A stretch of DNA of 64,000 bases, taken from sequence record MT446416.1. One strand, 5' to 3'. A program made the position numbers and the translations under genes. This document shows positions 909 to 52,078 of the stretch, piece by piece. The notes under the pieces are model-generated. The model made no database searches, was not told the origin of the DNA, and worked only from the letters and a program-made list of their open reading frames with translations. Origin of the DNA: Escherichia virus TH47. Numbering within the stretch: position 1 is the first letter of the stretch; each line of letters begins with the position of its first letter.

Positions 909-1289
909 TCAAAATAAATTCATTTCATGTGCGTATTGTGGTTCAAGATGCGATAAGTTTTTGAAGCTTTCTTTCAACTCAGCATCATCTACATACACCG
1001 TGCCTGGTACATTCCCCATAGTGAAACCTACCCACACAGTCATGTCACCAGTCCCTAAGCGTGGCATTGATAGCGAACCATCAGGTGAAACATCAAACGC
1101 TACACTGAAGTCATCAGTAACAACGTCATAACCATTTTCGAGAATAATACATCCACTATCTTTAAGCTTCTGAATGTGGATAGCAGCCTCTACAGCACGT
1201 TTGAAGTTATAGTAAGACTCTTTATCCTCAAACATTGATTGTTTAATCAGACGCTTGTTTAGCTCGGTTACTTTGTGCATTTGACGCAT
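909..1289 (-). CDS. hypothetical protein (126 aa)
   Basis: ORF track; its start abuts the stop of the upstream gene at 1289. Confidence 0.7.
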   Translation of the reverse strand: MRQMHKVTELNKRLIKQSMFEDKESYYNFKRAVEAAIHIQKLKDSGCIILENGYDVVTDDFSVAFDVSPDGSLSMPRLGTGDMTVWVGFTMGNVPGTVYVDDAELKESFKNLSHLEPQYAHEMNLF

Positions 1290-1546
1290 TACTTATCCAT
1301 CTCCAACAGTTGTAGAATTTCATAAGAGCCTGGTGGTGCTGGATTCCTGATCTCAGGGAATTGAGTACTTTTAGGATTACCACCAGCATTAAATTCATCA
1401 AGTAATGATTCGAGTTCATTCCTATCATGAACAACAAACACGCAATATCCAGTACCTTCTTCAAGAACAGTAGTTGAACCCGCACAATCCCATACTGTAT
1501 CAATACATAATAATTCTTTAGTGTTTTTGTTACGCAATGCAAACAT
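1289..1546 (-). CDS. hypothetical protein (85 aa)
   Basis: ORF track; packed in co-directional minus-strand array. Confidence 0.6.
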   Translation of the reverse strand: MFALRNKNTKELLCIDTVWDCAGSTTVLEEGTGYCVFVVHDRNELESLLDEFNAGGNPKSTQFPEIRNPAPPGSYEILQLLEMDK

Positions 1547-1555
1547 ATATGTCTC

Positions 1556-1900
1556 CTATCGATTCGGCATATTCTTTCGTAGTCGCAAGAGAAATTCAAC
1601 CACTGACCATGTTGAAATGAAGGTAATATAAGTTGCCAAGAATCCGGTAAGAATAAATGCAACCAGCGTACTACCATTTGGTCCATCTGCTTTAATACCA
1701 ATTATACCATCAACTACAGTGAAACATGTAGCCATTAGCGTGTAGCAGACGTACAACACAAAGAAGAACTCATTCTCCATTGAAGGGTAGAAACGGTTAA
1801 ACACTTTATAAAATTTAAAGTACAGTAGGATTATACCAACAAAGACATAAAATGTAAACAGGGTTGTTATAATATATGAGATTAGGTTCAAATTATACAT
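1556..1900 (-). CDS. small multi-pass membrane protein, tandem paralog 1 of 3
   Basis: Start re-picked at MYNLNL (GGAG SD upstream). Several hydrophobic segments. C-terminal ..LRKNMPNR tail shared with the next two genes. Confidence 0.65.
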   Translation of the reverse strand: MYNLNLISYIITTLFTFYVFVGIILLYFKFYKVFNRFYPSMENEFFFVLYVCYTLMATCFTVVDGIIGIKADGPNGSTLVAFILTGFLATYITFISTWSVVEFLLRLRKNMPNR

Positions 1901-1901
1901 A

Positions 1902-2243
1902 TTAACGCTCCGGTAAATTATCACGTAAGGTTTTAATTCGATTATACAATTTCACTGAAACATTACCAAATATACCATATCCAAGTACTAAAATGTATGC
2001 AATAAGCATAGTAATAATTACTATAGTGCCAAAACTATAATGTACACTACTGATACCCAATGTAGTTTCAACGATTATTTGGGAAAGAGAAAGAATCAAA
2101 AGTACAACTACAATAGGATGATTTGGATACATCCTATTAAATAGTGTTTTGTACTTGAAGAAGCAAAGCACTCCACCAAATAAGAAGTAAACAATGTAAA
2201 TGCAAGCAACAGCATAGGCAAACACGTTAGTGTAATAAATCAT
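1902..2243 (-). CDS. small multi-pass membrane protein, tandem paralog 2 of 3
   Basis: Track start is TTG; ATG at 2243 follows an AAGGA SD. Tail ..LRDNLPER. Confidence 0.65.
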   Translation of the reverse strand: MIYYTNVFAYAVACIYIVYFLFGGVLCFFKYKTLFNRMYPNHPIVVVLLILSLSQIIVETTLGISSVHYSFGTIVIITMLIAYILVLGYGIFGNVSVKLYNRIKTLRDNLPER

Positions 2244-2252
2244 TATCAATCC

Positions 2253-2591
2253 TTATTTTTCAGGGATATTAGAACGCCATACATCAAGGCGATGGATCAG
2301 CTCAAAAAACAACCATACTGGAAAGAAAGATATCATAACACCAAGTGATAACCCGGTCAATACCGATACCAGATTTAATTCATCAGTACTATATCCACAT
2401 ATCAGTACTTCTAATATTCCCCACGTACACGCACAGAATACCAAGAATGAAATCGGTGCATCATAATAGATACGTTCATATAAAGTAGTGTATCGGAAGA
2501 ATGCAATAATGTAGCAAAACATGAAATATACCCACATCAATGACACTACATAGAATGACACTTTATTAATTAATTCAAAATTTTGTTCCAT
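2253..2591 (-). CDS. small multi-pass membrane protein, tandem paralog 3 of 3
   Basis: ORF track; hydrophobic; tail ..WRSNIPEK. Confidence 0.65.
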   Translation of the reverse strand: MEQNFELINKVSFYVVSLMWVYFMFCYIIAFFRYTTLYERIYYDAPISFLVFCACTWGILEVLICGYSTDELNLVSVLTGLSLGVMISFFPVWLFFELIHRLDVWRSNIPEK

Positions 2592-2592
2592 T

Positions 2593-2874
2593 TTATACCT
2601 TCAAATATTCAGAAAATAATGCATGAGCTTCTTCTATATTCTTGAGATAATACATATGATATAGATTTGGTTGACCATTTTTATAACTTAAATCGAAGTA
2701 CTTTAAACTATGCACCTTCATGACAAAAACAAATAATGACTTAAAACCAATCTCACCGTACTTAATAAACAGTTCATCTAAATGAATGTAACTCTTAGTT
2801 TCAGATAATTCCTTCACATCAGCTTCAATTTCTTGTAAGCGAAGTTTACCGATTAAGTTTTCAAATGAACGCAT
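2593..2874 (-). CDS. hypothetical protein (93 aa)
   Basis: Start re-picked at MRSFENL (AAGGA SD 8 nt upstream); upstream gene stops at 2886. Confidence 0.6.
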   Translation of the reverse strand: MRSFENLIGKLRLQEIEADVKELSETKSYIHLDELFIKYGEIGFKSLFVFVMKVHSLKYFDLSYKNGQPNLYHMYYLKNIEEAHALFSEYLKV

Positions 2875-2885
2875 GATGTTGTTCC

Positions 2886-3299
2886 TTATGCTGGTACACA
2901 ATTTTTTATAATGAATACACGTTTCATGAATGAACTTTCATATACGTACTTCAGTTTACCATTTTCACGCATACGATGAAACACATCTTTACCACTAGTA
3001 CTCCAGGTTGAACCAGTCTCTGTATCAACATTGTTCATAACACCAGATGTTACGTTCACCCCGTACTTGAAGCTAAAGGTACTACCTTCTTCTACCAGAG
3101 GGATTGGTGTACTACGTTCATGTTCCAGTACAAGTTTACTGCCGATGATGTTGTACGAAGTTAGATTGCATTTTAAAACACCCATCTCTTGTGCAGTTGG
3201 GTAATTCTTCTCAAACAAATCAGATACTTCATTTGCATAACAAACTGAACTAATCATCAGAAGTAATGAACTGATAGAACGGAAAATAACTTTTAACAT
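2886..3299 (-). CDS. secreted hypothetical protein (137 aa)
   Basis: N-terminal signal-peptide-like MLKVIFRSISSLLLMISSVCYA. Confidence 0.65.
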   Translation of the reverse strand: MLKVIFRSISSLLLMISSVCYANEVSDLFEKNYPTAQEMGVLKCNLTSYNIIGSKLVLEHERSTPIPLVEEGSTFSFKYGVNVTSGVMNNVDTETGSTWSTSGKDVFHRMRENGKLKYVYESSFMKRVFIIKNCVPA

Positions 3300-10665: not shown

Positions 10666-11016
10666 TTAGTCCTCATATTTACACAAGCCACCGAATGTTG
10701 CCTGTTTTGCTGCCTTACGCATCATCACAAGTTTAACATACTGTTCGCCATTACTTTCTTCATATACATCAACTTGAAGAAATGCAAGCATATTGGGATC
10801 AGTATCATTCGAGTACTGCGTAAAACTAATGTCACCTACAGTATGTTCTTTAACAAAATTATACACTTCACCGTCGATATAAACGATAGTATGGTCATCG
10901 CTATCACCTTGGTAAATGTGTTTAATATCACCTTCAGTACAGACTAGTCCAGGTAATGGTTCTGCATAAGACATACCACACACAATCATACAAACAAAAA
11001 ACAAAATTACTTTCAT
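10666..11016 (-). CDS. secreted protein (116 aa), paralog of 11407-11772
   Basis: Signal peptide MKVILFFVCMIVCGMSYA; shares ..IVYIDGEVYNF.. versus ..IVVDNEVYRF.. Confidence 0.65.
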   Translation of the reverse strand: MKVILFFVCMIVCGMSYAEPLPGLVCTEGDIKHIYQGDSDDHTIVYIDGEVYNFVKEHTVGDISFTQYSNDTDPNMLAFLQVDVYEESNGEQYVKLVMMRKAAKQATFGGLCKYED

Positions 11017-11396
11017 GATTTGTTTCCTTTGGATAAAATTGATTTCTTCACTTTGTACTGCTTGTAGTTATTATACCAAACATCGGTTACATAAATCAAG
11101 TACCAAAGTGATGGATATAATGCTAGACCAATAAAAACTGAAAAAATACTTGTATTAATAAAATCAATACAGTACAGTGTAAATGCAAAGATTAGAATAC
11201 CAATGGTAATCATACTAGCTGTATATGGTACACTATCAGATGCAAACCATGAATCAATCTTACTAATTAAAGTATACTTTCCAGTACTAACAGCATAAAC
11301 AATTGCTACTATACCAAATAATGCCATTGAAATAGTTATTACTGAGTTAATAAGAATCGGAGTAATTAATACATAAAGCATTACATCGTTTATCAT
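11013..11396 (-). CDS. multi-pass membrane protein (127 aa)
   Basis: ORF track; four hydrophobic segments. Confidence 0.65.
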   Translation of the reverse strand: MINDVMLYVLITPILINSVITISMALFGIVAIVYAVSTGKYTLISKIDSWFASDSVPYTASMITIGILIFAFTLYCIDFINTSIFSVFIGLALYPSLWYLIYVTDVWYNNYKQYKVKKSILSKGNKS

Positions 11397-11406
11397 TTGT
11401 TATACC

Positions 11407-11772
11407 TTAAAGTTCACAATGAATATTCAATTTATCAATATCCTGATCGCGTTTGTTCGACGAATCTTGATAAATGTCTATGTAAATATCCCCATCCTTT
11501 GTCTTGGGGTCCACTATCAATATTACATTTGCTATTATACCAGCATCTGATTTATATGTCGATACCTTTTTATTCCCAATCAAACTCTCGGCCCTGAAAC
11601 GGTAAACCTCATTATCTACGACAATATTGTTTCCATTTTGTGGGTCATTAGAAAGTACATGCCATGTTCCATCGTTTCCCATACAATCAAGGGAAGCAGG
11701 TACGGCTGTACTGAACCTTGAATAAAGCATGAATACTACAAACACCATTATCATTCTTATATATTTTTTCAT
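11407..11772 (-). CDS. secreted protein (121 aa), paralog of 10666-11016
   Basis: Signal peptide MKKYIRMIMVFVVFMLYSRFSTA. Confidence 0.65.
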   Translation of the reverse strand: MKKYIRMIMVFVVFMLYSRFSTAVPASLDCMGNDGTWHVLSNDPQNGNNIVVDNEVYRFRAESLIGNKKVSTYKSDAGIIANVILIVDPKTKDGDIYIDIYQDSSNKRDQDIDKLNIHCEL

Positions 11773-29207: not shown

Positions 29208-29612
29208 TCATCTTCCTCGTAGGTTTCTGGCAATTTCAAAGATACCATTAATGTTGTCAACTGTCAATCCACACATATCGTATACAGTAGATAGCTGAAA
29301 GAACATATCTTCATCTATAGTAACATGTTCAATCTGCATTTGCAAGAGCACTTCACCAAGAAAATGATCGTATGTTTGTATCTTAAAAGAATCATAATAT
29401 ATATCAATGAAGAATTTTGGCACACCATAGAACGAAACGACAAGTACAATGTTGTCAGAAGCTTCACATGGAACACTCAATGTATTTTTAAATGAACGGT
29501 ATTCAAATGTGTACGGGTCCACGTCACATGTATAGAATGAACTACACCCTTCAGAAAATATTACACCATTTTCAATTAGCATAGATAGTGCATGTGGTGG
29601 AATTTTCAACAT
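29208..29612 (-). CDS. FQxST-motif paralog family member (134 aa)
   Basis: Motif DEDMFFQLSTVYDMCGLT. Confidence 0.7.
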   Translation of the reverse strand: MLKIPPHALSMLIENGVIFSEGCSSFYTCDVDPYTFEYRSFKNTLSVPCEASDNIVLVVSFYGVPKFFIDIYYDSFKIQTYDHFLGEVLLQMQIEHVTIDEDMFFQLSTVYDMCGLTVDNINGIFEIARNLRGR

Positions 29613-29620
29613 TTCAATGT

Positions 29621-30037
29621 TTATCCTTTATTTTGTTGTACGTTATTATGTAGTACACCACAAATATAAAATAATTTACTTAGATTAGAATAACTTATGT
29701 TAGTTAGATCGTATACGAAATTTAGTTGCATATACATATCTTCAGTTAAATCATACAATGATTCGTCCACATCAATTACAATTTTCTTTGTAGTGTCAAT
29801 CTCTACTTTATTAGGCCATACATCAATAACATAATCATCACCATGTTTTTCAGATATGGAAATGAAAACATTATCGCTTTGTTCTAAAAACTCCATGTAT
29901 CCGTTAAGAAATGATCCAGTTATTATCTCATATTCACCAGAATGATACGTTGTTCTGGACTCAAATTCATTTAAAAATATCAAACGATATGTTTGGTTGA
30001 TATACTCATCAATTAAACTAATAACTTCTTTATTCAT
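29621..30037 (-). CDS. FQxST-motif paralog family member (138 aa)
   Basis: Start re-picked at MNKEVISL; motif TEDMYMQLNFVYDLTNIS. Confidence 0.65.
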   Translation of the reverse strand: MNKEVISLIDEYINQTYRLIFLNEFESRTTYHSGEYEIITGSFLNGYMEFLEQSDNVFISISEKHGDDYVIDVWPNKVEIDTTKKIVIDVDESLYDLTEDMYMQLNFVYDLTNISYSNLSKLFYICGVLHNNVQQNKG

Positions 30038-30054
30038 TACATTAATCCCCACAA

Positions 30055-30085
30055 GAAAAAAGGCCGATTCATAATGAATCAGCCT
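30055..30085 (-). terminator. intrinsic terminator overlapping the next promoter
   Basis: Minus RNA AGGCUGAU-(9 nt)-AUCGGCCU plus UUUUUCUU. Confidence 0.6.
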
Positions 30086-30087
30086 TA

Positions 30088-30117
30088 AGTATAACACAGT
30101 AGAAGTAAAAATGTCAA
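30088..30117 (-). promoter_or_regulatory. sigma70-like promoter
   Basis: TTGACA-18 nt-TATACT on the minus strand. Confidence 0.45.
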
Positions 30118-30216
30118 CTTCTAAAATACAGTATCAAAGAGGAATAAAAAAGATACTGTTAGAGGGTAACGAATATAATGAACCATGAGGGTGATATCAT
30201 TATACTTTAAAAGAGT

Positions 30217-30264
30217 GATAGCTTCTAGACAAAAGGAGGAATTCAGTACCGACTAGAAGCTATC
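30217..30264. repeat. 12-bp perfect inverted repeat GATAGCTTCTAG / CTAGAAGCTATC with a 24-nt loop
   Basis: Read directly; lies just downstream of gene 30278-30562. Confidence 0.7.
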
Positions 30265-30277
30265 CGGTTAAACGATT

Positions 30278-30562
30278 TCAGTACTGAATGTTTAGTTTAG
30301 GATGAGTATGTCCATCTTCGATTTGCTTTAGAATCGAGTCGCGGATCTCCACTGCACCCTGATAACTGTATTTATCGTTCGGAACTACCCATGTATATTC
30401 ACCATCAGTGGTTTTAAAATCAATACATGGATTGTCTCTGTATTCAGATGCAATGATTGATATAACATGCAATGAATTCAATGAATGATTTGTATAAGGA
30501 TAATTGTTATTGTCTCGGAACGTGAATGTTTTTAGTTCATCAGGTGCAACAATAAATTCCAT
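30278..30562 (-). CDS. hypothetical protein (94 aa)
   Basis: ORF track. Confidence 0.6.
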   Translation of the reverse strand: MEFIVAPDELKTFTFRDNNNYPYTNHSLNSLHVISIIASEYRDNPCIDFKTTDGEYTWVVPNDKYSYQGAVEIRDSILKQIEDGHTHPKLNIQY

Positions 30563-30753
30563 TATTCATCCTCGTACTTCTTGAATGGTGGAACATCTAC
30601 CTTGAAGTCTTTGCACATCTTAGTTGCACGAACTTCAGTATTGTTGTGGTAATTTTTATTAAATTCATAAGAAACATAATTACGAATACCAGGTGTATGA
30701 ATAATAGCAAGAACCAATGTACGACCAAATAAGCATAACAAATTCAAAAACAT
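30562..30753 (-). CDS. hypothetical protein (63 aa)
   Basis: ORF track. Confidence 0.5.
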   Translation of the reverse strand: MFLNLLCLFGRTLVLAIIHTPGIRNYVSYEFNKNYHNNTEVRATKMCKDFKVDVPPFKKYEDE

Positions 30754-30766
30754 ATTAAGCTCCGAG

Positions 30767-31126
30767 TTATGGATTAATCAAACGACACATACCAACTATA
30801 ACATTTATCTCTTCTAATGTCAAGTCACCAATGTCATTTATCATTGAGTACTGGAATAATGACTCTTCTGTGTACTCAAAATCACGTACTGCTATAAAAA
30901 TTGGCTCCTTAGAAACATCTAATGTTATCTTAGCCATTGTACTATATAAATCAAATTGATACAAAATATTAGGAGAAGTATATGCTATGTATATATTATT
31001 ACATTCTGATGGATGTACCAGTGTGAATCCATCATAACATAATATTTTTATGTTAGGATCATCAAAATTACCAGTATAAAGATTCTTACGAACATCTTGC
31101 ATTATACAAGTTATTAAACTAGTCAT
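30767..31126 (-). CDS. FQxST-motif paralog family member (119 aa)
   Basis: Motif TEESLFQYSMINDIGDLTLEEIN. Confidence 0.7.
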   Translation of the reverse strand: MTSLITCIMQDVRKNLYTGNFDDPNIKILCYDGFTLVHPSECNNIYIAYTSPNILYQFDLYSTMAKITLDVSKEPIFIAVRDFEYTEESLFQYSMINDIGDLTLEEINVIVGMCRLINP

Positions 31127-31535
31127 TAAACGGATTTAGAACCTCTTCTGGAATTAATCTTTGAACTTTAAGTATAGCATTAATGTCCTCAAATGTCAAT
31201 CCATTTAGATCGTTTACGAGACAGTACTGAAAGAATTTTTCTTCAGTATCTATATCGTCAAAATTCAATTCAATTCTAGTGTCAATATAATCACTATTTA
31301 CATTAGCAATTCTGATTTTAACTCGTTCAAAATACACATCAAATGAATAAAAATGATCATTGATTTCATAACCAAGAAAAATATTAAAACATTTACTCAA
31401 ATCAGTGGTTTCGTTCAAATCGCCATCATAGCAAAAAACTCTAACTTCACCAATATCTTCTAATTGTACATCATGCAGTGACCATGCGTTGTTTTTTAAT
31501 ACGTAGTTCACCATTTTAACAATGTTGTATTTCAT
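31119..31535 (-). CDS. FQxST-motif paralog family member (138 aa)
   Basis: Motif TEEKFFQYCLVNDLNGLTFEDIN. Confidence 0.7.
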   Translation of the reverse strand: MKYNIVKMVNYVLKNNAWSLHDVQLEDIGEVRVFCYDGDLNETTDLSKCFNIFLGYEINDHFYSFDVYFERVKIRIANVNSDYIDTRIELNFDDIDTEEKFFQYCLVNDLNGLTFEDINAILKVQRLIPEEVLNPFND

Positions 31536-31552: not shown

Positions 31553-31948
31553 TTATTTACGATTCCTTGCGGAGTTCTTGTTCCTCGCTCTGAATGTTGG
31601 TGTCATCGAATGACAATTAGGGCAAAGGATTTTTAAATTCGGTAGGTCATTATTTGTAGCATCACCATCAATGTGCTCAACTTCTGTCAGTACTGCACCA
31701 TCAACTGGGTGACGTTTATCCCATCCACATTCTTCACATGCAGTTCCGCGTGTTTCATGTAGATATCTTCTCACAAATGGGCATAACTGTATGGTAATAC
31801 CTTTATATCCAGGATGTTCACCGTTAAGCCATTTATCAACTTTCTGTTGATATTGTAGCTCTTGTTGACATGCAACACTACAATATTTTGTTTGGCCCTT
31901 TCGAACCAATTCAATTTTACAACATGTACAATAACGTTTTTCTTTCAT
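31553..31948 (-). CDS. HNH endonuclease (131 aa)
   Basis: CTCC..C..C, then CEECGWD...VEHIDGDATNNDLPNLKILCPNCH; start re-picked after a GGAG SD. Confidence 0.75.
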   Translation of the reverse strand: MKEKRYCTCCKIELVRKGQTKYCSVACQQELQYQQKVDKWLNGEHPGYKGITIQLCPFVRRYLHETRGTACEECGWDKRHPVDGAVLTEVEHIDGDATNNDLPNLKILCPNCHSMTPTFRARNKNSARNRK

Positions 31949-32076
31949 ATAGTTCTCCATATATTATGGAGTATTTATATGTAAGAAAAATATCATTTTT
32001 GAGGTCAATATCAGAATTGCACTGATTATTCAGACTTACAAGGTCCGTGTTATACTCTTTTAACTAATCGACCTGA

Positions 32077-32458
<382 letters not shown>

Positions 32459-32477
32459 GCATACTCGAAGTACCTCT

Positions 32478-32583
<106 letters not shown>

Positions 32584-32627
32584 AATTGCTTTATAAGCTA
32601 CTGAATCGGGAATCACAACCTCCCCAT

Positions 32628-33145
<518 letters not shown>

Positions 33146-33154
33146 ATTTGTTTC

Positions 33155-33340
33155 CTATGAAATGAATGTAGCGTTAATTCCCATTATAAATGCAAATATA
33201 CCAAACAATATCAGACCGATTGGTACAAAGATCATAGATCTATTTCCATGTTTCGATAAAAATCGTTCAAGTATAATTAAACGTATTGATATAGGAACCA
33301 TTATAATAATATACAATATTGAAAGAATTAAAAGTTGCAT
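33155..33340 (-). CDS. small two-pass membrane protein (61 aa)
   Basis: ORF track; hydrophobic. Confidence 0.5.
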   Translation of the reverse strand: MQLLILSILYIIIMVPISIRLIILERFLSKHGNRSMIFVPIGLILFGIFAFIMGINATFIS

Positions 33341-33368
33341 TTTAATTTCCTATTATCATTTCGTTTTG

Positions 33369-33441
33369 CGACTCTGGAGGAACTCGAATCCCCAACCAAT
33401 TAATTAACAGTTAATCGCACCACCAATTGTGCTACAGAGTC
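33369..33441 (-). tRNA. tRNA-Asn (anticodon GTT), 73 nt, CCA not encoded
   Basis: Hand-folded cloverleaf GACTCTG-TA-GCAC-AATTGGTG-GTGC-G-ATTAA-CTGTTAA-TTAAT-TGGTT-GGGGA-TTCGAGT-TCCTC-CAGAGTC-G. Confidence 0.85.
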
Positions 33442-33449
33442 ATAATTAT

Positions 33450-34154
33450 TTACAAGCCATGTCTTTTCAAAAATCTAGCAAACACATTTTTGGAAGCACC
33501 ATAGCTTTCATATATACTAACTTTTTTCTCACCATTAGTCAAACGTTTTTTTATATCTTCTATGTTATCTTCTAAACGTTTTACGTTTGCAAATTTCTTA
33601 GATGGTATGTTATTTTTGGTTCTATAATTCAGTACTGAACCTGAACTGATATTCATTATTTTAGCAATTTCAGTATCTAACAAACCTTGGTTAATATATT
33701 CTTTTACCTTTTCATAATCAACTGATGTTTCACCACCCTTTGTATTTGACGGAGGCTTGACCATTTTTTGTGAACACTCAACACTACAATATTTTGTATA
33801 TGATTTCACTTTAGTATGTCTACGGGAAAATTCCGTATTACAACAAGCACATACAAATGAATCATATCGTGCTTGTACTCCATTCTTATGTGTTTTATAA
33901 CGATGTTCATCAACATGAAGTATTTGTAAATTAGACAAATCATCATTTGTGAAATCATTATCAATGTGGTCTGCTTCTTCAGACTCAGTTAAATATCTAC
34001 CTTCTTGTACTGCTAATAGATATCTGGCATATTGAGTACTGCTTCTATCAGTTGGAGAATTATAAAGTATTACAGTTCTTCTACCTTCAGGGTTTATCTG
34101 TATATACCCATTCTTCCAATCATTACTATATGGATATTCTAATTTTATTTTCAT
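33450..34154 (-). CDS. HNH homing endonuclease with C-terminal HTH-like region (234 aa)
   Basis: EADHIDNDFTNDDLSNLQILHVDEHRYKTH; starts 19 nt after the tRNA-Met 3' end and stops 8 nt before tRNA-Asn. Confidence 0.75.
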   Translation of the reverse strand: MKIKLEYPYSNDWKNGYIQINPEGRRTVILYNSPTDRSSTQYARYLLAVQEGRYLTESEEADHIDNDFTNDDLSNLQILHVDEHRYKTHKNGVQARYDSFVCACCNTEFSRRHTKVKSYTKYCSVECSQKMVKPPSNTKGGETSVDYEKVKEYINQGLLDTEIAKIMNISSGSVLNYRTKNNIPSKKFANVKRLEDNIEDIKKRLTNGEKKVSIYESYGASKNVFARFLKRHGL

Positions 34155-34173
34155 TATTTTATTTCAAAGTTTG

Positions 34174-34478
34174 TGAGCCATCTGTGAGTCGAACACAGTA
34201 CCTAACGATTCGTATAATCTATAGTTTTCACTATAGTACGGACTATATCATCATCCCATAGGGATGCCGGACGCTAATGATGTATTACACAGTAAGATCG
34301 TACTGTACCATCTAGTCTCTGCACCTTCCCAATACGCTTATTGGGCTTGGCTCAGGATTGTCATCACCATTACGTGTTAAGATTTCCCTGAATTCATCCA
34401 GTTTTTCAATCACCATTACTGATGAAAGTCACCATTGTCGATGAGTCGTTTGCTCTAACCACCGTGAGCTAATGGCCC
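34174..34478 (-). tRNA. tRNA-Met/Ile2-type (anticodon CAT) interrupted by a 230-nt intron
   Basis: 5' exon (34478-34441) GGGCCAT-TA-GCTC-ACGGTGGTTA-GAGC-A-AACGA-CTCAT. 3' exon (34210-34174) AA-TCGTT-AGGTA-CTGTG-TTCGACT-CACAG-ATGGCTC-A. The joined exons give a canonical cloverleaf. Confidence 0.85.
34211..34440 (-). mobile_element. group I intron (IC3-like) in the anticodon loop of tRNA-Met
   Basis: Follows U36 and ends in G. Contains CAGGGAAA, CAATCCTGAGCCAAGCC, GGGAAGGTGCAGAGACTAGATGG and TAGTCCG, which match the core of bacterial tRNA group I introns as I remember them. No ORF inside. Confidence 0.8.
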
Positions 34479-34507
34479 GATTTGGGTGTTCCTAGTGTTT
34501 CATTATT

Positions 34508-34721
<214 letters not shown>

Positions 34722-34733
34722 AAATTAATTATA

Positions 34734-35126
<393 letters not shown>

Positions 35127-35483
35127 ATCACCAACTTTAATTAAAAAAATGGATGGTTACGCTTTTAAACGCCGCTGTTAATTCAGCTTTATAACCACCC
35201 GTTTTAACTTGCCTTTCGGCTACCTTGACGTGGGGGCGTACAGGCTACTAAAAGCAACTTCTGTAAACATATTTCCACACCTTACCCTTTTAAATAAAAG
35301 TCCATCCGGTTTTCCAGTTTGGTGAAGGACTGTCACCTCTAGTTTAAACCTGCTAGTCAAGTAATAATTGCCTATCGTCCAATTATCAAACCCGTCTAGG
35401 TTAACATTCACCACTTCCTAGAGTGCCAGAGATCTTGTTCTGGATTTCATCGACGTAACTTACACCATATACGTCTGATTGTG
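35127..35483 (-). ncRNA. ORF-free structured leader or candidate ncRNA (~355 nt)
   Basis: Starts just after promoter 35490-35518. About 45% G+C in a counted line. Hairpins include GCC-GAAA-GGC and GGTGA-cagtcct-TCACC. Ends ..CCAUCCAUUUUUUU 20 nt before the next ATG. Track ORF 35220-35414 is implausible. Confidence 0.3.
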
Positions 35484-35489
35484 GAATTC

Positions 35490-35514
35490 ATTATATCAGT
35501 ACTGAACTATTTAG

Positions 35515-35518
<4 letters not shown>
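35490..35518 (-). promoter_or_regulatory. sigma70-like promoter (extended -10)
   Basis: TTGACT-aaatagttcagtactga-TATAAT; the -35 overlaps the stop of 35515-35871. Confidence 0.6.
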
Positions 35519-35893
<375 letters not shown>

Positions 35894-35898
35894 TATAC

Positions 35899-36101
<203 letters not shown>

Positions 36102-36105
<4 letters not shown>

Positions 36106-36266
36106 ATTCGTACCAGTAGTTCAATTAAGTACATTTCATATGCTGGATCGTTGATAAGTTTATCATACAGATGTGACTCTGAAATGAATTCCCAATGATA
36201 TTTTCGCCATTTACCAAAACCTGCATATCTAAAATTAATGTCATTCATCCATTCTTCATGTGTCAT
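36102..36266 (-). CDS. 54-aa MTHEEW-family micro-protein, copy B
   Basis: MTHEEWMNDINFRYAGFGKWRKYHWEFISESHLYDKLINDPAYEMYLIELLVRI; ATGA overlaps on both sides. Confidence 0.6.
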
Positions 36267-36427
36267 AATCGTACCATTATTTCAATAAAGAACCACGGAT
36301 ATACTTCATGGTTTATAAGTTTATCGTATTCTGCTGGGTCTGATATAATTTCCCAATGATATTTTCGCCAACTACCTATACCCGAATATCTAACATTAAT
36401 GTCATCCATCCATTCTTCATGTGTCAT
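36263..36427 (-). CDS. 54-aa MTHEEW-family micro-protein, copy A
   Basis: MTHEEWMDDINVRYSGIGSWRKYHWEIISDPAEYDKLINHEVYPWFFIEIMVRL. Confidence 0.6.
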   Translation of the reverse strand: MTHEEWMDDINVRYSGIGSWRKYHWEIISDPAEYDKLINHEVYPWFFIEIMVRL

Positions 36428-36465
36428 GGTTTTTAACCTTTAATTAAAATTGTCAAAAATGTATT

Positions 36466-37004
<539 letters not shown>

Positions 37005-37024
37005 ATCCTTAATATTATATTTTA

Positions 37025-37096
37025 TAAAGGGCCGGAGAATCGAACTCCGATTGGATTCTTAGAAGGAATCTGTTTTATCCATTAAACTAGCCCCTC
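37025..37096 (-). tRNA. tRNA-Arg (anticodon TCT), 72 nt
   Basis: GAGGGGC-TA-GTTT-AATGGATA-AAAC-A-GATTC-CTTCTAA-GAATC-CAAT-CGGAG-TTCGATT-CTCCG-GCCCTTT-A; the acceptor stem has G1-U72 and G3-U70 wobbles. Confidence 0.75.
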
Positions 37097-37106
37097 AGTA
37101 CTAATA

Positions 37107-37117
37107 ATTATATCACA
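37107..37117 (-). promoter_or_regulatory. extended -10 promoter element TGTGATATAAT upstream of tRNA-Arg
   Basis: The -10 ends 10 nt before the tRNA 5' end. Confidence 0.5.
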
Positions 37118-37156
37118 TCTTTGTGGTCTGTCCCAGAAATTGTGATATAAAAGTTG

Positions 37157-37375
37157 TTATTCTTGTGGTTTAGTTACACCAACACCAATAATGCTTTTAA
37201 TATCAATATGGATATTAGCAAGTTCATTACTGTCAAACGGGTTAGTTTCAGTTACAACAACAGTGGCATCATTAACTAAAACTACTGAACCTTTTACGCG
37301 GTATCCCTGAAGGAGTACTTGAACATTGTCACCAGCGTTTAATGAGTTAATAACTTCTAATAGGGTAGATTCCAT
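37157..37375 (-). CDS. possible Sm/Hfq-like small protein (72 aa)
   Basis: NVQVLLQGYRVKGSVVLVNDATVVVTE fits an Sm1-like pattern (h.h.L..G..h.G.h..hD...hhh); IHIDIKSIIGVGV is Sm2-like; motif-level only. Confidence 0.6.
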   Translation of the reverse strand: MESTLLEVINSLNAGDNVQVLLQGYRVKGSVVLVNDATVVVTETNPFDSNELANIHIDIKSIIGVGVTKPQE

Positions 37376-37391
37376 TTTATATTCCTTACGG

Positions 37392-37583
37392 TTAACTATT
37401 TTTACGTTTTTCTGATTCTGGTACAGTTTTCATTTCACCAATACATAGTTCCATGATGAGTACACCTTTATCATTATAACGTACTACATCTTCAATGTCA
37501 AAATGTCTCGCACTATGAACAACTTCAATACATGCATCATCGGGATATGATTCCAATAATGCTACAAGTTCTGCTTTTGTCAT
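37392..37583 (-). CDS. hypothetical protein (63 aa), related to 32664-32879
   Basis: ORF track; promoter 37614-37641 upstream. Confidence 0.55.
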   Translation of the reverse strand: MTKAELVALLESYPDDACIEVVHSARHFDIEDVVRYNDKGVLIMELCIGEMKTVPESEKRKNS

Positions 37584-37613
37584 TTGCCATCTCTCTGTTA
37601 TTTATCTTTAGTA

Positions 37614-37641
37614 ATTATAGCATAAAAACACATCATGTCAA
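37614..37641 (-). promoter_or_regulatory. sigma70-like promoter
   Basis: TTGACA-tgatgtgtttttatgc-TATAAT on the minus strand. Confidence 0.6.
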
Positions 37642-37712
37642 ATGTTTTATCTTTATTTTAAGTGATACACAGTACTGAAAATATAATAAAGAAAAATTTC
37701 CAGTACTGAGTT

Positions 37713-38687
37713 TTATTTAACGTGTTTCCATGATACACCTCTAATAGCTCTACTTATTTGCATTCTATGAACGCCAAACTTTTTTGCTAATGCGTCATAA
37801 CCAAATTCTTTATGTTTTGGTACAAATACTTTTCTACAGTATCTAACTATATCTTCAGTTAATTTGGAATTTGGTTGTTCATCACCTTTAAGATGATAAT
37901 CAGGGTTATTTATTTCTTTATATTCTGTACTTTCTTTTGCAGTCGCCCACATAAGATTGTCTAAATCATTATGTTCTTTATTACCATCTTTATGTATTAC
38001 GTATGGTTTGTTTTCGGGATTTGGTATAAAAGCCATTGCCATTACACGACTTATTTTAAATCCTATATGTTTGAATTCATCACCAACTTTTATTTTTGTT
38101 GCATGATATGGATTTCCATTACTTAGAGTCTGCTTTAATATTTTTCCAGTGCGTTTGCTGAATAAATTTCCATTATCACTAATAGAAAAATCATCCTCAA
38201 ATCCAATTACATCTTTAAATATTTCAGTTTCATTTTCTGGTGGTTCAAATGGTATTCGGTTTTTATAGTAATATGTATTTTTACAAGAAGTTCCGCAAAA
38301 TCCTTTTGACCTACTATCAGAAATTATTATTCTATTAGTACAGTTGATACATTTTGTTTCATATGGTACAAAGGGTTTATAATTTTCGTATTTTATATTA
38401 CTTCTTTCTAACATATGAATTCTAGCATGTTCAGATGCTGACAATATTTCAAGATTTTCTGGGGAATTATTTAATATATTTTCATCTATATGATGTACAT
38501 GTTCATCGGATGATAACCATCTACCTGCTGCAACTGCTGCAACATGTCTGTGATAATATACTCTCCCAGTTTTATGACACATGGGGTGTTCTTTATCCAT
38601 AAAATAAAGATAACCCTTATTAGTGCCGTGTAATTTTAATTGGTTTATTATACATACCAAAGTTCTCCGTAAGTTGTTGTTTCGCAT
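37713..38687 (-). CDS. chimeric double-HNH homing endonuclease (324 aa)
   Basis: The N-terminus has HRHVAAV..EHVHHIDENILNNSPENLEILSASEHARIH. The C-terminal half is paralogous to 36466-36990 (FKDVIGFEDDFSISDNGNLFS; IHKDGNKEHNDLDNLMWA; SKLTEDIVRY..ISRAIRGVSWKHVK). The start codon abuts the tRNA-like element. Confidence 0.8.
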   Translation of the reverse strand: MRNNNLRRTLVCIINQLKLHGTNKGYLYFMDKEHPMCHKTGRVYYHRHVAAVAAGRWLSSDEHVHHIDENILNNSPENLEILSASEHARIHMLERSNIKYENYKPFVPYETKCINCTNRIIISDSRSKGFCGTSCKNTYYYKNRIPFEPPENETEIFKDVIGFEDDFSISDNGNLFSKRTGKILKQTLSNGNPYHATKIKVGDEFKHIGFKISRVMAMAFIPNPENKPYVIHKDGNKEHNDLDNLMWATAKESTEYKEINNPDYHLKGDEQPNSKLTEDIVRYCRKVFVPKHKEFGYDALAKKFGVHRMQISRAIRGVSWKHVK

Positions 38688-45946: not shown

Positions 45947-46401
45947 TATTCATCACCTTTTAGTAATTTACAAATTTCAATCATATGATAATAACATGTA
46001 TTCCAAAATTGCCCATTAGTACTACCAACATCATGCACAGTACTTTGTTGGAAAACATATTCATCATTGAACAACTTTTTAATATCATCAATGTAAAATT
46101 CTGGTTTTGAATCATTATTGTATTCAATACTCGTTTCACCATCTGGATCAAGTGAAATTGATGATATATCGTGAATGCCTATCGGATTTGTTGGATAAAT
46201 TCTCAACGTAAGAGGATAGAAGTCTGGATCGGTTTCATATGTATATTCGATTATGTAATTACCATCTCCAGTAATTGATTGATATTTAAATGTAGTTTCA
46301 ATTGAATTTGAGATGTTAAATCCCAGTCTCTTTATCTCATGTAGATGTAATAATATTTTATGTAAAGTTCCTAAAACATGAATCAAATTATCAATTTTCA
46401 T
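45946..46401 (-). CDS. FQxST-motif paralog family member (151 aa)
   Basis: Motif FNDEYVFQQSTVHDVGS. Confidence 0.7.
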   Translation of the reverse strand: MKIDNLIHVLGTLHKILLHLHEIKRLGFNISNSIETTFKYQSITGDGNYIIEYTYETDPDFYPLTLRIYPTNPIGIHDISSISLDPDGETSIEYNNDSKPEFYIDDIKKLFNDEYVFQQSTVHDVGSTNGQFWNTCYYHMIEICKLLKGDE

Positions 46402-46940
46402 TTACGGTCCTTTGAAAAGTTCAGTTTAAAAGTTTTACCAAATTCCATTGTAGCTTTACCCAGATTGTTAATATTTTCTTTCAACATTTCTTGCATCTTC
46501 CTAATACTTTCATTCCAGGCTTCTTCTTCTTTGCGGAGGATTGGTCGCAATCGTTCCTGAATATCGTTAAAACGTGTATTGAGTTCAACCAATGATTCAT
46601 ATGTGAAATCTTTCATATCGATGATAGTACTACGTTGAAAGAATTCTTCTTCGGATAAATTACTCAAAATGATTTTATCACTACCAATAGATAATGTCAA
46701 TTCATCATCTTGATTTTTTTTAATTACAATACGTACAGGTGATTTTATAGTAATGTGAACATCATGATTATTAAAAGTTTCAGTTTTGTTTGACGTTCTG
46801 AATTGTAGTCTTCCGGTTAGTGCGTGTACTGGCATTGGTTTCTTTTTACCAGTAATAACATCTTCCCACGAATCAAGGATATTATTAATAATTTTAACAT
46901 AAGGAACTGTCATATATGCACCTATGAAAAATCCACGCAT
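46398..46940 (-). CDS. FQxST-motif paralog family member (up to 180 aa)
   Basis: Motif LSEEEFFQRSTIIDMKDFT; the start may instead be at MTVPYVK (46913). Confidence 0.7.
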   Translation of the reverse strand: MRGFFIGAYMTVPYVKIINNILDSWEDVITGKKKPMPVHALTGRLQFRTSNKTETFNNHDVHITIKSPVRIVIKKNQDDELTLSIGSDKIILSNLSEEEFFQRSTIIDMKDFTYESLVELNTRFNDIQERLRPILRKEEEAWNESIRKMQEMLKENINNLGKATMEFGKTFKLNFSKDRK

Positions 46941-47437: not shown

Positions 47438-49327
47438 TCAAAAGAATATCTCTCGTAGTAAGTGTGATATAACTGGCATAGTCCATCCATTCCCAAGCAT
47501 TTTATATGCTTGTGTCTTACTAGACACTTTAAAGAAATCTTCAGGAACGCCCTGTAATTTACAACATTCTACTACACTTAAGTGTCTATAGTCAATATTT
47601 CTTTTACCATTCTCTAATAGATATTGACGATTAATCATTGGGTCACGAAACACCAATTGTCGTCTTGATTTATTAAAGTACTGGTTGCAATCACCACCCT
47701 TAAAATAGTTAGCATCTATACAGTACGAAGCGGTCCTGTCAGTGTACCAACCATCTTCAATGATATCTTGAAGTTTAGGGGCATTTGATAATGCAGGTGG
47801 TATAAAAAGCTTATCAGTACTGCACCAGTAGTATCTCTGCCTGAAGTGAGGCGTATAATGCTGGGAATTTATCAGTACTGGTGTCATCTCAAGAACACTA
47901 TTAATATATTGCTTGAAATCTTCTTTCATTTTAACATTCTCGAACAGTACTTTCAAGTCTGGATTGAGACTTTTTATGTGCTCATAAATGTCAACCATTG
48001 TATGAAACAACATTCCACGCGGATCATTTATTCCACCCTGTTTACCTGCAACAGACCAAGATTGACAATTGTGCACAACTATGTTATTTGCGGTATATGT
48101 ATTGTCAACGGCAACTTCAAAATTATATACGGTTTTCCATTCACCTGTCGAAATACTTGTTTTTATACCTTTAACCCATGAATAATTTTCGTCATAAAAA
48201 GCTTCCTCTTTTTTGGGTTTGTCTTTTTTATATGATAAAACATAATACGGTTTTTGGTTTACAATTCGTCCCTCAATAACTTTAGTTTTTTCTGGTTCGG
48301 TAAGGCTTATGTTGGAATGTCTTCCGTAAACGTTCATTATTAATTGTTGGACACCTAATACACAGTCTATTGATGTTGTAGTGAATTTATAACAATTACT
48401 ATCAATATGACCATCTGCATCAAAATATCCATCAAGGAATGCTTTTTGGTTCTGTACACATTCATTGAATAAATCGGGATGAACTTTCTTATTAGATGCA
48501 CCTTTACCCATTTGTTCACAGAATTCAACGAGTTCTTTTGAACATATATAAAATTTATATGATGTTCTTTCTTTGACATAATTATATTTCATGTTCATAC
48601 CTTCAAAACACGAAATCAATTCATCAAATTCATCATGTGCACAACAGATGAAAACTCTATACTGGTAACTATTCTTTCTATTATTACGCTTTACTTTATA
48701 AGTCCATCCGTCACCCATAAAGCGTCCCATAAAATACCAGAATTTTTCATCTTTTGATGATTTACTAGATTCAATTGATTTAACATTACAAAGAAAATGT
48801 TCAGATGTTAATTCGTGTGCCTCAACCCATTCAGGTTCAGTGAAGGATCGTTCAGATTGTCTAATTCTGTTATTCCAGCTAGACGACATTTTTCTAGCAT
48901 AAAATGGATGATTATCAGTGCATTCAATTGGGATATGACCTTGACCAGTTATAATACGGGTTGGTGCTTTTTTAACACCTGTACTCAATACTGGATGATA
49001 TTGTCCAGTATGTGTTAGTACCATGTCACCAACTTGAATGTCTTTAATGTCTTTATGACCTTTATCGGTCATTATCATTGTTCCTTCCGTGAAGCACGGG
49101 AACCCTCCCATGAGAAGGTCAATTTTATCCCACTCAATATCCCATTCTCTCCATTTAGTTACATCACCCAATTGGGTGATATCAGGAAAGTTAGCTTGAG
49201 ATTCAGCTATTGCGTACTTGTCAATTTCGGATGAATAATATTTTTCAACAGGGATACCAGCATCTTTTAATGCCATGTATCCCACACTCATCCCATTAAA
49301 AAGAGATAGTACTCGGATAGGTTTCAT
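47438..49327 (-). CDS. DNA (cytosine-5) methyltransferase precursor containing an intein (629 aa; 286 aa after splicing)
   Basis: Motif I LSLFNGMSVG; motif IV GGFP|C..intein..HN|CQSWSVAG; ENV (VLFENVKM); QRYYW; ECCKLQGVPEDF; MLGNGWTMPV. Confidence 0.9.
   Translation of the reverse strand: MKPIRVLSLFNGMSVGYMALKDAGIPVEKYYSSEIDKYAIAESQANFPDITQLGDVTKWREWDIEWDKIDLLMGGFPCFTEGTMIMTDKGHKDIKDIQVGDMVLTHTGQYHPVLSTGVKKAPTRIITGQGHIPIECTDNHPFYARKMSSSWNNRIRQSERSFTEPEWVEAHELTSEHFLCNVKSIESSKSSKDEKFWYFMGRFMGDGWTYKVKRNNRKNSYQYRVFICCAHDEFDELISCFEGMNMKYNYVKERTSYKFYICSKELVEFCEQMGKGASNKKVHPDLFNECVQNQKAFLDGYFDADGHIDSNCYKFTTTSIDCVLGVQQLIMNVYGRHSNISLTEPEKTKVIEGRIVNQKPYYVLSYKKDKPKKEEAFYDENYSWVKGIKTSISTGEWKTVYNFEVAVDNTYTANNIVVHNCQSWSVAGKQGGINDPRGMLFHTMVDIYEHIKSLNPDLKVLFENVKMKEDFKQYINSVLEMTPVLINSQHYTPHFRQRYYWCSTDKLFIPPALSNAPKLQDIIEDGWYTDRTASYCIDANYFKGGDCNQYFNKSRRQLVFRDPMINRQYLLENGKRNIDYRHLSVVECCKLQGVPEDFFKVSSKTQAYKMLGNGWTMPVISHLLREIFF
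48068..49096 (-). mobile_element. intein with LAGLIDADG homing-endonuclease domain (343 aa, residues C78-N420)
   Basis: Starts CFTEGTMIMT; block B VLTHTGQYHP; LAGLIDADG motifs FWYFMGRFMGDGW and KAFLDGYFDADGH; ends NNIVVHN followed by the +1 Cys of the PCQ motif. Confidence 0.88.
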
Positions 49328-49379
49328 ATAAAATCCTTTTTATATTGTTAAGGTACTATAATATATTATAGCATCTTAT

Positions 49380-49631
49380 TTAGAAATCTCCCAAACTTTT
49401 TTCATCACACCATCGTGATGTGCAGATGATTGCAGATGCCAAAATTGAAGCACTTGCTCGGCCTCCACCGAGTAAGTACTGGCTAATGACACCAATCATA
49501 TTGAAGACTTTATCATACTCAGCAAGGAGTTCGAAATCCTTCTTCCAACATTGATATTCTTCTTCAGTAACATTAAACTCATCACCAAGTTCATTTAAAA
49601 TCTTTTTTAGTACTGCACGATGTTCACTCAT
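49380..49631 (-). CDS. hypothetical protein (83 aa)
   Basis: Start re-picked at MSEHRAVLKK. A 25-codon upstream ORF (MTEKPKEPLDRDDDFYDERYGESDE) overlaps it. Confidence 0.55.
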   Translation of the reverse strand: MSEHRAVLKKILNELGDEFNVTEEEYQCWKKDFELLAEYDKVFNMIGVISQYLLGGGRASASILASAIICTSRWCDEKSLGDF

Positions 49632-51667: not shown

Positions 51668-52078
51668 TCAACTCCCCACTATTACTGTGTTTTTAATTTC
51701 TAACAATTCACTATACATCTTCTTCAATTGTACAATATCTTCATATAAAATACCACCCATATCATCAATCAAAGAACGTTGAAATAGTGATTCATCTGAC
51801 TGTATTGTGTCCAAATCAGAAATTTTCAAAACTGTATCTGGGTTTAGTGTGTTTACAATAAGTTTGTTTGTGTATGGTACGTATGTGATCTTGATATTCA
51901 TTTCTGAATCAAGGGCATACAACCTCAAAACTGACAAATCACCACAAAGTTGGATTTTTGGTTCATCAAACTCATCAGACCACCACATAGTACTAGTCAT
52001 ATAATTGACGTGTTGGTTCAAATGTGATATATCCAAATCGAAATAATATTTTAGTTCATTGTGTAAATCTAAACTCAT
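51668..52078 (-). CDS. FQxST-motif paralog family member (136 aa)
   Basis: Motif QSDESLFQRSLIDDMGGIL. Confidence 0.7.
   Translation of the reverse strand: MSLDLHNELKYYFDLDISHLNQHVNYMTSTMWWSDEFDEPKIQLCGDLSVLRLYALDSEMNIKITYVPYTNKLIVNTLNPDTVLKISDLDTIQSDESLFQRSLIDDMGGILYEDIVQLKKMYSELLEIKNTVIVGS

Follow-up and report, generated by a model that had tools for sequence, protein, structure and literature searches.

A predicted class 1 intein with a LAGLIDADG endonuclease, inserted before the catalytic cysteine of a cytosine-C5 DNA methyltransferase in an Asteriusvirus jumbo coliphage

How can a DNA methyltransferase function when 343 residues are lodged in its catalytic loop, immediately before the cysteine that serves as its nucleophile? 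This question is raised by a gene in a 64,000-nucleotide stretch of Escherichia virus TH47 (sequence record MT446416.1; hereinafter the window), which belongs to Asteriusvirus, the 121Q/PBECO4-type jumbo coliphages with genomes of about 350 kb. The initial annotation of the locus, made from the nucleotide sequence alone, had described a 629-residue open reading frame (ORF) at positions 47438-49327 that has all the motifs of the C5 DNA methyltransferases but whose motif IV is split by a LAGLIDADG intein. Translation of the ORF and its match to the PF00145 family bear out the frame and the motifs and place the precursor gene, for which no strand had been given, on the minus strand (47438..49327, with the stop codon at 47438-47440); the 629-codon frame is uninterrupted in both the ORF list and the translation. 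From the evidence assembled below, we consider it very likely that the insert is a genuine intein of class 1, with a LAGLIDADG endonuclease, situated at the catalytic cysteine of the C5 methyltransferase.

The junctions of the precursor read LLMGGFP77/C78FTEGTMIMT...TANNIVVH419N420/C421QSWSVAGK (slashes mark intein boundaries here and below), such that the insert comprises residues 78-420 (343 residues) and the joined exteins amount to 286 residues. The N-extein (residues 1-77; 49097..49327, minus strand), recognized by Pfam and alignable to the DNMT3 catalytic domains (residues 4-80 of the latter), contributes motifs I (LFNGMSVG) and II (SEID) together with GGFP, the opening half of motif IV. 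The C-extein (residues 421-629; 47441..48067, minus strand), recognized by both PF00145 and TIGR00675, supplies the remainder of motif IV (CQSWSVAG) along with motifs VI (ENV), VIII (RQRYY), IX (RHLSVVE) and X (GNG). Hence, in the spliced sequence motifs I, II, IV, VI, VIII, IX and X are all found in order. In the precursor the match to PF00145 (DNA_methylase; E=1.8e-32) is broken at residue 78; upon removing the insert in silico, the score increases from 113.5 to 134.5 bits (threshold 22), with a single continuous match (4-134) spanning the junction. The TIGR00675 model (NCBIfam dcm) behaves likewise, with 100.0 bits for the precursor and 120.7 bits for the spliced product, the cut-off of 100.65 being passed only without the insert. 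The ratio of nonsynonymous to synonymous substitution rates (dN/dS) of the exteins is 0.06-0.13, which points to purifying selection on the methyltransferase. The computed masses are 73.3 kDa for the precursor, 33.4 kDa for the spliced methyltransferase and 39.9 kDa for the excised intein, in agreement with the earlier estimates of ~33 and ~40 kDa for the two products. The initial annotation had additionally spoken of an excised product of 286 residues: the size is correct but belongs to the spliced enzyme, the excised element being the intein of 343 residues.

The insert (48068..49096, minus strand, as are all the features within it) is predicted to combine a Hint splicing domain with a LAGLIDADG homing endonuclease domain nested within it, based on the Hint_2 and LAGLIDADG_3 models, Foldseek comparisons and the existence of empty-site alleles. 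Hint_2 (PF13403) is recovered with 39.4 bits against a gathering threshold of 28.4, and LAGLIDADG_3 (PF14528) with 30.7 bits in the precursor and 33.1 bits in the isolated insert against a threshold of 22.5. The first residue, Cys1 (C78; 49094..49096), is the predicted nucleophile of the N-S acyl shift and is invariant in both of our alignments (A1 and A2). The TxxH signature of block B corresponds to T137-D-N-H140 (48908..48919), with T137 and H140 invariant in A1. The endonuclease domain extends approximately from precursor residue 193 to 335 (48323..48751), as delineated by a match to PI-PkoII over intein residues 116-258 and by structural matches to I-DmoI. It contains the first LAGLIDADG motif, FMGRFMGDGW (residues 199-208; 48704..48733), with the predicted catalytic acid D206, in which G201 is invariant and R202 and D206 are at least 90% conserved, and the second motif, LDGYFDADGH (residues 298-307; 48407..48436), with the predicted catalytic acid D305, in which G300 is invariant and D305 and G306 are at least 90% conserved; LAGLIDADG_3 itself matches residues 294-357. 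The element ends in block G with H419-N420 (48068..48073): the terminal Asn, predicted to undergo cyclization, is invariant, and the residue before it is H, F or Y across the family. The length of the insert, blocks A and B, the two LAGLIDADG motifs and the terminal HN are all as the initial annotation had given them. The presence of Cys1 and the block B TxxH assigns the element to class 1, and for the same reason we rejected a class 3 intein. A search of the 64-kb window for a second copy of this intein family yielded none.

To place the insert among its relatives, we used it alone as a query against a large protein collection and recovered 12 homologues with 28-53% identity. Eleven of them carry the insert at the same place, in host proteins that mostly belong to PF00145; the remaining one (P0012) is a partial sequence that starts within the intein. 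Six residues are invariant in the alignment of these homologues, namely P77, C78, T137, H140, N420 and C421, which include those expected to carry out splicing. Comparison of the window intein with those of phages JNE01 and A4 gave a dN/dS of 0.08 for the whole element including the endonuclease domain, which indicates selection for a working protein across the entire intein.

An AlphaFold model built on the homologue alignment has a predicted local distance difference test (pLDDT) score that, averaged over blocks of 10 residues, mostly lies between 75 and 94 over the intein, with two blocks in the 60s. Foldseek searches with this model retrieved the TliVMA intein as the best match (E=1.3e-16, template modeling score 0.67), followed by PI-SceI (the Sce VMA1 intein), PI-PfuI and PI-PkoII, and then by I-DmoI, a LAGLIDADG enzyme that is not part of an intein; the matches to the four inteins span E-values of 1e-16 to 5e-9. 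Structural similarity to the endonuclease domain of PI-SceI was likewise seen. In contrast to these structural matches, a sequence search of the PDB with the intein gave weak matches only, to the gp41-1 intein (9e-5) and PI-PkoII (6.5e-4). The window intein thus resembles TliVMA, PI-SceI, PI-PfuI and PI-PkoII in having a two-motif LAGLIDADG domain embedded in a Hint domain, and shares with them the chemistry implied by Cys1, TxxH, HN and the +1 Cys. It differs from them in several respects: the sequence identity is only 10-17%; their hosts are the vacuolar ATPase, ribonucleotide reductase or polymerases rather than a C5 methyltransferase; at 343 residues it is smaller than PI-SceI or PI-PkoII; and its block F has an Asn in place of the usual Asp.

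The exact boundaries of the element are marked by alleles without it. Among 36 deposited genomes that match the region, most have an uninterrupted gene of 858 bp (286 residues), whose product is alignable along its entire length (100%) to the in-silico spliced protein, with 92-93% identity. Occupied alleles, coding for proteins of 626-632 residues, are present in four of the 36 (JNE01, A4, ph0011 and UE-S1), where they are annotated as 'hypothetical protein' or 'cytosine methyltransferase'. The empty site is exact in 121Q gp91 and its WPEC5 counterpart (286 residues each), both of which read GGFP/CQAWS, with the junction DNA in the 121Q/WPEC5-type gene being GGATTCCCA/TGTCAAGCC. In the protein alignment, the occupied alleles hold the C...HN segment precisely at this point, with no residue lost or duplicated. 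This amounts to the classical presence/absence pattern of an intein, as judged from the aligned alleles. Together with the above-threshold Hint_2 and LAGLIDADG_3 scores and the matched intein folds, these exact empty-site orthologues uphold the identification of the insert as an intein that the initial annotation had proposed. A minor difference concerns codon 423 (48059..48061), where only the window has Ser at the +3 position (CQSWS); the other examined Asteriusvirus alleles, both occupied and empty, have Ala (CQAWS).

The Asteriusvirus copies of the intein form a close group of their own, with 53-95% identity, within which two variants are discernible: one in ph0011 and UE-S1, and the other in the window and two further loci (L001 and L004). 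The Hint termini of the two variants are near-identical and the endonuclease domain is strongly diverged. Between the types the overall amino acid identity is 53% and dN/dS is 0.26-0.52, as against 0.08 within a type, which suggests a domain-level replacement or a rapid shift of endonuclease specificity between them. A further relative is a metagenomic protein of 551 residues (P0004), an Asteriusvirus-like methyltransferase that is 55% identical to the window protein over its whole length and has a very similar extein. Its intein is at the same site but shorter (264 residues), and both LAGLIDADG motifs are decayed (WYNCG... and FLCGLFSSKC); by its sequence, it has reached the point in the homing cycle at which the endonuclease degenerates.

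We then considered the consequences of the insertion point for the enzyme. The spliced sequence aligns along its full length (residues 2-282) with the catalytic domains of animal DNMT3A/B/C with an E-value of about 3e-24, whereas the match to the bacterial M.HhaI and M.HaeIII is weaker (about 5e-18). The GGFPC(Q) of the spliced product overlies the GGSPC(N) catalytic loop of DNMT3; by these alignments the phage methyltransferase appears to be a short DNMT3-like enzyme. One deposited relative of the phage methyltransferase carries the annotation 'DNMT2'. In the C5 family the cysteine of the PC motif is the methyltransferase nucleophile. The +1 residue of the intein, C421 (48065..48067, minus strand), is invariant and aligns with precisely this cysteine in DNMT3A/B/C and HhaI, as the initial annotation had held. 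It is hence predicted to act as the nucleophile of trans-thioesterification and, after splicing, as the catalytic Cys of the PCQ motif IV. Since C421 is the nucleophile for both splicing and methylation, and 343 residues separate the two halves of the loop, no activity is to be expected before splicing; strict dependence of its activity on splicing is a sound inference from these residues. A variant of this arrangement is seen in a C5 methyltransferase from an IMG/VR locus (L035) with the junction GTP/C...VVHN/SQGFSLAG, where a +1 Ser replaces the Cys. Splicing could still work in this protein, and the resulting PSQ product should lack the catalytic Cys. The Ser may reflect loss of enzyme activity, an error in sequencing or another cause.

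On these grounds, we propose that translation would give a 73-kDa precursor, in which Cys78 would perform an N-S acyl shift and the resulting thioester would be attacked by Cys421. Cyclization of Asn420 would then free the 39.9-kDa intein, and an S-N shift would yield the 33.4-kDa methyltransferase with the GGFP-C-QSWS loop restored. During co-infection, the free intein endonuclease would cut an intein-less allele within the motif IV coding sequence, and repair from the occupied allele would copy the intein along with adjoining extein DNA, i.e. it would result in homing.

The pattern of divergence around the intein is pertinent to the second half of this proposal. A sliding identity comparison with the intein-less phage WPEC5 delineates a putative co-conversion (recombination) tract, not assigned to a strand, at 47885..49470, consisting of the intein flanked by ~374 bp upstream and ~183 bp downstream. 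Outside the interval ~49470-47885 the window is 98-100% identical to WPEC5, as against 86% inside it with the intein excluded: there are differences at 89 of the 652 compared bases inside and at 76 of the 3319 outside (Fisher p=9e-30). The parts of the tract have different nearest relatives, namely 121Q, UE-S1 and ph0011 for the N-side flank (91-92%), JNE01 for the intein (94%), and ph0011 and UE-S1 for the C-side flank (94.5%). Between the window and JNE01, the number of synonymous substitutions per synonymous site (dS) amounts to 0.25 for the intein and 1.10 for the exteins; therefore, the intein is much younger than its host alleles. The tract, the low dS of the intein and its dN/dS match what homing with co-conversion would leave, and do not in themselves prove endonuclease activity. 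By these signs the intein looks recently mobile, and we think its endonuclease is probably still active. A second patch that diverges from WPEC5 is found at 46273..46375 (about 78-89% identity to WPEC5 and about 97% to 121Q); this patch has no connection with the intein and appears to show the ordinary mosaicism of the genome.

Several observations weigh against the identification of the insert as a splicing-competent intein. The dedicated hidden Markov models for intein termini remain below threshold, with 12.7 versus 24.5 bits for TIGR01445, 10.5 versus 15.6 for TIGR01443 and 20.7-23.3 versus 35.8 for PF14890. Many class 1 inteins have an Asp in block F at the position where the window intein has N402, an Asn that is invariant in this intein family. 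The structural model has low confidence around both junctions (pLDDT below 50 for residues 74-78 and 421-432), with the C-extein in general being poorly modeled, and is hence unusable for active-site geometry. The terminus scores and the missing Asp could be taken to mean that the insert is a non-splicing domain or a dead intein, whose methyltransferase is inactive or repurposed, either as a pseudogene or as a fused endonuclease; the methyltransferase around the related intein of Mannheimia phage 587AP2, which looks disrupted, lends some further color to this. Against this stand the frame that is intact over all 629 codons, the invariance of every splicing residue, the purifying selection evident in the extein dN/dS, the intactness of each methyltransferase motif and the retention of several occupied alleles in different phages. 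We regard a dead or non-splicing insert as extremely improbable, and rejected a pseudogene or a plain domain insertion in light of the intact frame, the invariant splicing residues and the purifying selection.

If the insert is an intein, it is conceivable that splicing is intact and the endonuclease inactive, with the element being inherited vertically or moved by general recombination and the tract reflecting mosaic exchange among co-infecting jumbo phages. The tract could in principle stem from such ordinary phage-phage recombination rather than endonuclease-initiated repair; mosaicism is indeed seen elsewhere, in the patch at 46273-46375, and the decayed endonuclease domain of P0004 establishes that decay occurs in the lineage. 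However, the window intein retains the acidic residues of both LAGLIDADG motifs, its low dN/dS extends across the endonuclease domain, the tract has the insertion site at its center and the surrounding backbone is 98-100% identical to that of an intein-less phage, and the dS between the window and JNE01 is four-fold lower in the intein than in the extein. An inactive endonuclease thus strikes us as unlikely. A different possibility is that splicing is conditional, depending on a disulfide between Cys78 and Cys421 or on some other environmental trigger, with the intein functioning as a post-translational switch that times the methyltransferase during infection instead of being a wholly selfish passenger. 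Conditional splicing through disulfide trapping is documented for other inteins, and here both junction nucleophiles are Cys, the +1 Cys being the enzyme's own nucleophile. Yet most close phage relatives manage without the intein, its distribution is sporadic and linked to recombination as for a selfish element, and no sequence feature points specifically to regulation; we hold such a switch to be highly improbable. It is likewise quite improbable that redox- or condition-gated splicing would turn out to be a methylation timer for a jumbo phage, or that a single intein family would prove to spread over the divergent C5 superfamily via the conserved motif IV coding sequence.

Returning to the intein at motif IV, we find that its insertion point is by no means confined to Asteriusvirus. 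The same P/C...N/CQ site is used in cultured phages, namely Propionibacterium phage B22 (gp50), Lactobacillus phage Nyseid, EBPR siphovirus 2 (gp44) and Mannheimia phage 587AP2. A scan of IMG/VR recovered at least 421 contigs with a relative of the intein, and we classified the hosts of the best 80. A C5 methyltransferase with the canonical P/C...N/C-x-x-x-S junction accounts for 54 of these loci, and one with a variant motif IV (SPD/C, SPE/C or SPP/CK) for 13, of which three are confirmed by PF00145 and the rest are assigned from junction motifs resembling the confirmed cases or from remnants of the canonical motif IV. The remainder are N6/N4 methyltransferases (8 loci), DNA polymerase III alpha (3 loci) and host proteins without an assigned identity (2 loci). 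Thus, in about 67 of the 80 best loci the intein family is present at the motif IV Cys of a C5 methyltransferase. The inteins of the cultured phages and the IMG/VR copies are homologous to that of the window (28-39% identity) and occupy the same P/C...N/C(Q) position; however, their host methyltransferases are very divergent from that of the window and mostly longer. None of them is annotated as intein-bearing.

Some of these loci have peculiarities of their own. Two IMG/VR loci (L049 and L071) have related inteins at HPP/C...VHN/CTRLCNSG in a protein without a Pfam family. In Mannheimia phage vB_MhS_587AP2 (L007, locus 964-3284), the frame enters unrelated sequence after VVHN/CQS and then reaches a stop; the C-terminal methyltransferase motifs are encoded by a second ORF that overlaps in a different frame, and a gene for an HNH homing endonuclease follows. 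Judging from this arrangement, the intein-bearing methyltransferase of 587AP2 appears broken. RefSeq mycobacteriophage methylases with a related intein (such as NC_026588, Squirty gp68, and NC_011287, Pacc40 gp60) are named 'anaerobic ribonucleoside reductase large subunit', and phrog_26446, which bears the same reductase name, matches the window intein over profile positions 367-698. The name looks like a case of annotation transfer via the shared intein, as opposed to one reflecting the host protein.

Inteins in phage methylases have previously been described for the N6/N4 enzymes of actinobacteriophages (Kelley et al. 2016, PMC5050341; Genes 2023, PMC9957025). As in the window, these are LAGLIDADG elements that are sporadically distributed and show signs of having passed between divergent exteins, and an actinobacteriophage methylase intein is about 28% identical to that of the window; unlike the C5 enzyme of the window, their hosts are mainly amino-methyltransferases of the PF01555 family, with the junction H-x/CLA...KN/CPLQ. 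A 2025 survey of actinophages lists C-5 methylases (IPR001525) among the intein hosts without discussing the site (bioRxiv 10.1101/2025.01.02.630785). In the Rak2-like jumbo phages, which belong to the same broad jumbo phage group, the only inteins mentioned are those of the terminase large subunit (PMC5259590); these similarly combine Hint with LAGLIDADG_3, but differ from the window intein in their host gene. The word 'intein' is absent from the UE-S1 genome paper, and methylases go unmentioned in the main text of the 2015 intein-clustering survey. A full-text literature search found no paper that treats the motif IV catalytic Cys as an intein insertion point, nor any on coliphages in this regard; most of what it retrieved merely cited inteins in reference lists or used them as purification tags. 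The insertion point is hence common in the data, barely described in text and mechanistically unsurprising.

The methyltransferase presumably shields phage DNA from host restriction. The initial annotation had called it an orphan with no recognizable restriction gene next to it, and we likewise obtained no hit to a restriction partner among the ten flanking ORFs (about 2.5 kb to each side): none belongs to a Pfam family or has a PADLOC hit, and the only PHROGs matched are of unknown function, which is absence of evidence only. These flanking ORFs are called hypothetical in the annotations of the relatives. Restriction enzymes are notoriously hard to detect, and a novel nuclease may lie among the flanking ORFs. 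The wider window has several families of small, paralogous, minus-strand ORFs in tandem arrays (29208..31535, 46398..46940 and 51668..52078, and also 31553..38687, 1556..2591 and 10666..11772), with one six-member family including two genes that flank the methyltransferase region. Many of these small ORFs share a C-terminal motif of the form E-x-x-F-Q-x-S-(T/L)-(V/I)-x-D, and all of them are of unknown function in PHROG.

This case leaves the current understanding of inteins unchanged: elements of this sort occur frequently in phage methyltransferases but are seldom annotated, and the one in the window is not out of the ordinary among them. Its immediate bearing is on annotation. At least four Asteriusvirus genomes and many phage records have 'hypothetical' or plain 'methylase' with the intein missed; the 629-residue protein of the window is itself already in NCBI, on a 352-kb contig, with about two dozen near relatives, none of which is named as an intein. 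Further, the window and WPEC5 are near-isogenic save for the intein tract and hence constitute a natural pair for the study of intein homing and co-conversion in a jumbo phage. The endonuclease should recognize the motif IV coding sequence and is thus a possible reagent. With regard to the biology of these elements, the intein occupies the most constrained residue that a C5 methyltransferase has, and a single Cys would serve both splicing and catalysis, such that the host cannot mutate the site to gain immunity without losing the enzyme. The motif IV insertion thereby offers a clean, textbook illustration of why inteins persist in active sites.

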